Shown here in pieces: positions 25,538 to 25,635 of a stretch of 64,000 nt of DNA. Below the pieces are notes generated by a model that was given only the letters and a program-made list of their open reading frames with translations, was not told the DNA's origin and did no database searches. The DNA is from Escherichia coli (lineage in GTDB: Bacteria; Pseudomonadota; Gammaproteobacteria; Enterobacterales; Enterobacteriaceae): the NCBI RefSeq assembly GCF_003334315.1, contig NZ_QOWR01000020.1. One strand, given 5' to 3'. A program made the translations under genes and the position numbers. Numbering within the stretch: position 1 is the first letter of the stretch; every line of letters starts with the position of its first letter.

Positions 25538-25635
25538 GCCGGATGCGGCGTGAACGCCTTATCCGGCCTACAAGTTCGTGCAAATTCAATAAATTGCAAT
25601 ATGACGTAGGCCTGATAAGCGTAGCGCATCAGGCG
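25538..25635. repeat. BIME-like unit (REP - spacer - inverted REP)
   Basis: GCCGGATGCGGCGTGAACGCCTTATCCGGCCTAC ... CAAATTCAATA ... GTAGGCCTGATAAGCGTAGCGCATCAGGCG; near-identical to the copy at 35375-35472. Confidence 0.75.

Follow-up and report, generated by a model that had tools for sequence, protein, structure and literature searches.

Three repeat units in the window (the whole 64,000-nt stretch of Escherichia coli DNA that we analyzed) are independent members of the BIME-1 family; we are confident that they resemble one another through family membership and not through recent duplication of one another. We call them unit A (between yiiX and metJ), unit B (between yijF and gldA) and unit C (behind pfkA), and all sequence-level features of BIME-1 are present in each. 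The three units are ordinary and already known: literature from the 1990s-2000s onward covers BIME-1 elements, their IHF site, their polymorphism between strains and their targeting by IS1397 and IS621. The value of the analysis is that a generic repeat family is not misread as a specific recombination-prone pair, and that the inventory of the window is corrected to three BIME-1 copies, not two. The only residue, a mildly interesting one, is a half-and-half BIME-1 polymorphism inside the predicted metJ terminator loop.

Structure of the three units

The window is a segment of the E. coli chromosome that is 99.0-99.6% identical to MG1655, where it extends from ~4,102,452 to ~4,166,414. The offset from window to MG1655 positions is 4,102,451 up to position 13221, except for a shift of 1 nt close to unit C; from position 13298 onward it is 4,102,414. 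The features are listed in Table 1. The genes around unit A (metJ and yiiX) and around unit B (gldA and yijF) are all on the minus strand.

According to PMC3333891, which summarizes the classification of Bachellier and co-workers, a BIME-1 is made up of one y and one z1 REP that are inverted relative to each other. It is found as a single copy, and its L linker is long, well conserved and often contains an IHF site; the definition is also found in PMC2817692. The elements are also called RIB (reiterative ihf BIME) and RIP (repetitive IHF-binding palindromic), and the original work on them (Gilson 1991, Boccard & Prentki 1993, Bachellier 1994 and 1999) is summarized in PMC3333891 and PMC2817692. 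Units A, B and C share with this class the inverted Y and Z1 REPs, the L linker with an IHF consensus, the occurrence as a single unit, the extragenic position at gene 3' ends and the GTAG beside the palindromes. They differ from it in nothing of substance, although A is without the right flank, and in B the left flank has lost an internal stretch and the right one is truncated.

In all three units the Y REP reads GCCGGATGCGGCGTGAACGCCTTATCCGGCCTAC and the Z1 REP GTAGGCCTGATAAGCGTAGCGCATCAGGC, and the linker is 34-35 nt long. The tetranucleotide GTAG lies 5' of the palindrome at 25606-25609 in A and at 35444-35447 in B; for the Y REPs it is found on the opposite strand. Both sequences also show the AA/GC mismatch in the stem. 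The 17-nt spacer core AAATTCAATAWATTGCA has exactly three exact matches in the window, one in each unit, and six matches when up to three mismatches are allowed, compared with 0.43 expected by chance. A repeat search of the window showed a single unit at each of the three loci, with no adjacent copies.

The original prediction placed A and B between these genes on one strand, with common REP arms and a common spacer in the same orientation, and all of this was borne out: the two align over the whole unit, far beyond chance. However, it also called them near-identical, which is too strong for 87 identical columns out of 98 (88.8%), a single 1-nt indel and a longest common exact run of 30 nt. 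Because of this indel, the position in B that is equivalent to 25635 is 35473 and not 35472. A and B also diverge towards the ends of L and in both flanks.

The family alignment extends the element beyond the REPs, with ~30 nt before the Y REP (CAGATTGCTGACAAAGTGCGCTTTGTTCAT) and ~25 nt after the Z1 REP (AATGTTGCGTTTGTCATCAGTCTCA). The outer ends of the consensus form inverted repeats (TCAGATTGCTGACAAA / TTTGTCATCAGTCTCA) that are complementary at 13 of 16 positions, and the consensus left flank contains a small hairpin, CAAAG-TGCG-CTTTG. Unit A has ACAACG-TGCT-CGTTGT there, so that the family hairpin is kept through a change on both sides (CAACG-TGCT-CGTTG). We believe that these flanks correspond to the flanking 'A' and 'B' motifs of the original BIME nomenclature.

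Table 1. Coordinates of the BIME-1 units, their parts and other REP features in the window
Feature	Position	Strand	Context and details
REP pair, Z2 and Y	1055-1139 (Z2 1055-1093, Y 1105-1139)	.	between convergent yiiM and cpxA
Unit C, full-length BIME-1 with both flanks	6095-6247	-	pfkA 3' UTR, pfkA-sbp interval
Unit C core	6120-6217 (Y 6184-6217, L 6149-6183, Z1 6120-6148)	-	from the repeat search
Truncated Y fragment and Z2 REP	13236-13293	.	between glpK and glpX
Unit A left flank, family-specific	25508-25537	+	21/30 match to the consensus CAGATTGCTGACAAAGTGCGCTTTGTTCAT; right flank absent
Segment present in 'filled' and missing from 'empty' genomes	~25513-25640	+	124-nt alignment gap: left flank, Y, L, Z1 and a few more bases
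Unit A core, BIME-1 (Y REP - L - Z1 REP)	25538-25635	+	yiiX-metJ intergenic, metJ stop 25664 / yiiX start 25480
Unit A Y-type REP	25538-25571	+	34 nt; inverted copy on the plus strand, CTAC at end
Unit A L linker	25572-25605	+	IHF-like core ATTCAATAAATTG at 25584-25596, one mismatch to WATCAANNNNTTR
Unit A Z1-type REP	25606-25634	+	29 nt; GTAG at start
Unit B with flank remnants	35356-35483	+	left CAGATTACTGGCACAGAGT (internal deletion), right AATTTTGCGTT (short)
Unit B core, BIME-1	35375-35472	+	yijF-gldA intergenic, between gldA stop and yijF start
Unit B parts	Y REP 35375-35408, L 35409-35443, Z1 REP 35444-35472	+	IHF-like core 35421-35433
Hairpin AAACTCCCGG-CTTGT-CCGGGAGTTT	35485-35509	-	directly downstream of gldA stop, transcriptionally upstream of unit B
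Y and Z2 REP pair	46015-46098	.	between eptC and yijO

Comparison with other copies of the family

To place A and B within the family, we used exact matches of the 17-nt linker core in one genome per species; the matches listed were mostly chance ones in AT-rich genomes. The copies outside the window comprised at least eight in E. coli E69, at least 15 in two Pseudocitrobacter genomes and at least two on probably contaminated contigs. Among the matches listed, an end-to-end alignment comprises 27 copies, drawn from the window, from E. coli E69 and from the two Pseudocitrobacter genomes. Over the 98-nt core their median pairwise identity is 87.8%, against 88.8% for A and B, and 46% of the pairs are at least as similar as A and B; these are again figures for the matches listed, and selection by an exact L-motif match biases the identity distribution towards well-conserved copies. 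Units A and B are each 89.8% identical to the BIME-1 consensus. Thus they resemble each other because both are near the family consensus. The original prediction singled out the two as near-identical units, and a special relationship between them is not supported, since their identity to each other is not above their identity to the consensus.

Copies of the E. coli type also occur on contigs assigned to unrelated phyla, namely a 'Bacteroides' MAG (L035), whose copy is 96.9% identical to unit B, and a 262-nt contig of Desulfosporosinus sp. OT (L038). These are likely to be enterobacterial contamination or mis-binning.

Presence and absence of the units among strains

Unit A is found in 2714 of 5426 complete E. 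coli genomes. In sampled genomes that lack it (e.g. O157:H7), the spacer between yiiX and metJ is 59 nt long instead of 183 nt, and the clean site is thus shorter by 124 nt. The empty site (positions 782-840 of locus L002) contains an A-tract, a hairpin and a U6 run after metJ, with a predicted energy of -20.9 kcal/mol and an ensemble frequency of 0.84, and this predicted fold is shaped like an intrinsic terminator of metJ that would work in both directions. A simple terminator scan did not call the hairpin, owing to the loop rule of the scan. For the filled site, the predicted fold retains the base stem of the hairpin and places the entire BIME in its loop. The yiiX gene is 3-5% diverged between filled and empty haplotypes. 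Salmonella has a plain hairpin and T-run after metJ and no BIME, with a different, non-syntenic gene downstream, and the empty site may perhaps be the ancestral state in E. coli. It is also possible that the polymorphism of unit A arose by precise excision rather than by insertion; Y1 transposases related to RayT excise seamlessly.

Unit B is present in 4589 of the 5426 genomes, and the other ~837 (~15%) carry a different, G-rich palindromic repeat (CCCCTCTCCCCTTTGGGGAGAGGGTTAGGGTGAGGGG...) at the yijF-gldA site. In strain F344 (positions ~445-625 of locus L004), this repeat, which we believe resembles boxC, replaces approximately segment 35356-35483. The hairpin at 35485-35509 is kept in both alleles. 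Unit C is found in 5310 of the 5426 genomes. Variability of this kind between strains was described by Bachellier et al. 1997 (reference 39 of PMC3333891).

The polymorphisms at yiiX-metJ and yijF-gldA, and the one at glpX-glpK that is described below, are concrete and datable and might be used as strain markers. The same three sites are possible natural test cases for the effect on expression of a BIME inside a terminator. One speculation, which we consider unlikely as a whole, combines two statements. The first is that the ~50:50 presence of unit A in the metJ terminator loop is a regulatory polymorphism, by which metJ mRNA stability or read-through into yiiX would differ between lineages, possibly via IHF. 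The second, more general one is that a full BIME-1 would be a MITE-like element of ~155 nt with outer inverted repeats and a preference for the loops of terminator hairpins.

Recombination between units

The original prediction regarded A and B as potential substrates for recombination, and we found no sign of this. We constructed the junctions expected from one deletion (A×B), one tandem duplication (B/A) and two inversions (C×A and C×B), and searched for them in the 5426 complete E. coli genomes. None of the four junctions was found in one piece in any of these genomes, and the best matches consisted of one flank and the repeat only, covering 57-60% of the query. The 11-kb region from A to B is colinear in 4761 genomes, and in the sampled remainder it breaks in the metL-metF interval and not at the units.

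The possibility that the units are hot spots whose recombination yields deletions and inversions between copies in natural populations therefore seems highly improbable to us. REP-mediated duplications have been described in Salmonella. In addition, PMC1525189 cites REP-REP recombination in F'128 amplification and at lambda bio junctions. Such events would favor hot spots, but they are set against four junctions that were sought in vain in 5426 genomes and an A-to-B region that is intact wherever it was followed. A negative result for the junctions is also what would be expected, given that an exact block of 30 nt is about the lower length limit for RecA-dependent recombination and that metB, metL and metF would be lost in an A×B deletion, which would presumably be selected against.

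The metL-metF spacer (29853-30202 region) carries insertions of at least 2.7 kb in several hundred genomes, annotated as 5'-nucleotidase and hypothetical proteins. It is these insertions, not BIMEs, that interrupt the A-to-B region.

Genomic context, IHF and RNA

Among the matches listed, the neighboring genes of 24 copies could be classified from crude ORF calls: they are convergent in 14 cases, co-directional in 10 (five in each orientation) and divergent in none. As no copy lies between divergent genes, the units always abut the 3' end of a gene, which is the position published for RIBs. Units A, B and C follow metJ, gldA and pfkA, respectively. The same 24 copies showed no preference of orientation relative to the genes; that the Z1 arm faces the upstream gene in A, B and C is a coincidence.

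Compared with the IHF consensus WATCAANNNNTTR, the linker core ATTCAATAWATTG differs at one position. However, this consensus is loose, and with one mismatch it is not enriched in the window (59 matches, 48 expected), so that the assignment of an IHF site rests on the family literature. On that basis the linker would bind IHF in the cell, and the REP hairpins in mRNA would act as 3'-end stabilizers and partial terminators for metJ, gldA and pfkA, in line with the roles of REP hairpins and IHF discussed in PMC3333891 and bioRxiv 10.64898/2026.03.23.713779. The copy of unit B in ST131 (positions ~520-560 of locus L005) has the L motif AAATTTACTATATTGCA, with three mismatches to the IHF core. This degraded core suggests that constraint is weak and that IHF binding may not be conserved at this locus in ST131.

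Either strand of each unit folds as a long imperfect hairpin (z-scores of -3 to -7), because the REPs are inverted. RNAalifold analysis of 23 copies showed compensatory changes in 0 of 30 pairs and no covariation, and the fold thus gives no independent evidence for a selected RNA structure. Simple scans for promoters and terminators called nothing within the units and no promoter-like site adjoining them.

Part of the unit is represented in Rfam. Family RF02751, ES036 (CssrF), has a consensus, AAAuUUGUGCAAAUUCAAUAAAUUGCAGGAaAUACGUAGGCCU, that corresponds to the L motif of BIME-1 together with the initial bases of the Z1 REP. The model matches unit A at 25572-25613 with 39.6 bits and unit C at 6141-6182 with 46.2 bits. 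Its gathering score is 37.6, which both of these exceed and which unit B, with 34.8 bits, narrowly misses. These matches could be taken to mean that the spacer is a small-RNA gene and that the units are sRNA loci rather than DNA repeats, a reading to which we give very little credence. The ES036 consensus is itself a piece of the repeat, no promoter-like site lies beside any of A, B and C, the base pairs show no compensatory changes, and copies occur in either orientation relative to their neighbors. If there is an RNA, it would most simply be a decay fragment of a 3' UTR. Thus Rfam files ES036 as an sRNA gene, whereas here it behaves as part of a DNA repeat, without promoter or covariation. 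A literature search on ES036/CssrF returned nothing relevant.

The least probable explanation of all is that A and B are a recent duplicate, or a pair homogenized by gene conversion, and hence a privileged substrate for homologous recombination: they do lie in the same orientation 9.8 kb apart with a 30-nt exact block and 88.8% identity, but among the matches listed each is only the eighth-best match of 26 for the other, the Pseudocitrobacter copies at L113 are closer to A and to B than A is to B although they come from another genus, the outer linker and both flanks differ, and junctions of an A×B deletion or duplication are absent from all 5426 genomes.

Transposition and REP-specific insertion sequences

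The rayT gene (b0228) is annotated in MG1655 at 247,637-248,134, where it is flanked by Y and Z2 REPs, ~3.9 Mb from the region studied here. The 64-kb window, from a strain ~99% identical to MG1655, contains no RAYT homologue (best tblastn E-value 0.84). For binding and cleavage, TnpA-REP requires a stem mismatch and a GTAG on the 5' side of the palindrome (PMC3333891). It cleaves and recombines BIME DNA in vitro, but BIMEs of E. coli are not known to transpose in vivo (PMC3333891). Going by this literature, copies may have spread in trans through a single-copy RayT/TnpA-REP acting on single-stranded REP hairpins with GTAG as a guide.

The units also resemble the REPINs mobilized by RAYTs (Bertels & Rainey 2011, PMC3116915; Nunvar 2010, PMC2817692), in that each is a non-autonomous pair of inverted REPs around a spacer whose presence at a locus varies between strains. 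The RAYT gene of such systems occurs once in a genome, and in MG1655 it is rayT/yafM. In contrast to REPINs, a unit in E. coli contains REPs of two different types, Y and Z1, and its linker would bind a protein.

Unit A has itself been a target. In strain PRO_A-1478, IS1397 lies in the loop of the Y REP, with GAAC (25552-25555) duplicated over 4 nt (positions 556-1989 of locus L137). In strain GPEC548, IS621 lies in the Z1 REP at 25608-25609 (positions 602-1880 of locus L138); these two bases are the CT core, on the other strand, of ATCAGGCCTAC, which is the reverse complement of 25606-25616. Both insertions were chance finds in two unrelated strains. They agree with the published specificities, as IS1397 inserts into palindromic units (PMC1525189) and the natural target of IS621 is ATCAGGCCTAC with a CT core (PMC11208160). 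REP-specific insertion sequences thus use unit A as a target.

The original prediction also named REP-associated transposition. Several observations fit this indirectly, namely that unit A is present or absent, that unit B is replaced in some strains and that REP-specific insertion sequences occur in A. The window itself contains no RAYT.

Unit C and other REPs in the window

Unit C is 87-88% identical to A and B and is inverted relative to them. An intrinsic terminator of pfkA is predicted at 6247-6267, and unit C lies between the pfkA stop and this terminator; it is therefore inside the pfkA 3' UTR. In the original prediction it appeared at 6120 among four simpler REPs that mark the boundaries of transcription units. 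The other three, near 1057, 13236 and 46016, are indeed REPs, but the one at 6120 is a complete BIME-1. The view of these elements as boundaries is broadly fair. The element at 13236 is flanked by two minus-strand genes, glpK and glpX, and it would be an exception if these form one operon; we take them to belong to a single glpFKX operon.

The glpX-glpK spacer (13222-13297) contains a Z2 REP in the window strain and a shorter Y-like REP in MG1655 (positions 15672-15712 of locus L001), which means that the window is not from MG1655 itself. An apparent overlap of the yiiM 3' end with a REP was dropped once the MG1655 offset had been corrected.

The Z2-Y pair between yiiM and cpxA is matched by Rfam naRNA4 (CssrE) at 1059-1136 on the minus strand with 78.6 bits. 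Here, too, an Rfam 'sRNA' family proves to be a model of a REP pair.

Between ppc and argE, positions 50932-51300 contain a BIME-2-like array of three tandem repeats of 123 nt with a Y REP in each, in which the later repeats are 98% and 85% identical to the first. BIME-2 arrays such as this one have REPs of the same superfamily as units A, B and C and occupy the same intergenic niches. However, BIME-2 consists of tandem Y-S-Z2 units with short linkers and gyrase sites (PMC3333891; PMC6379681), whereas A, B and C are single, have a Z1 REP and carry L with the IHF consensus.
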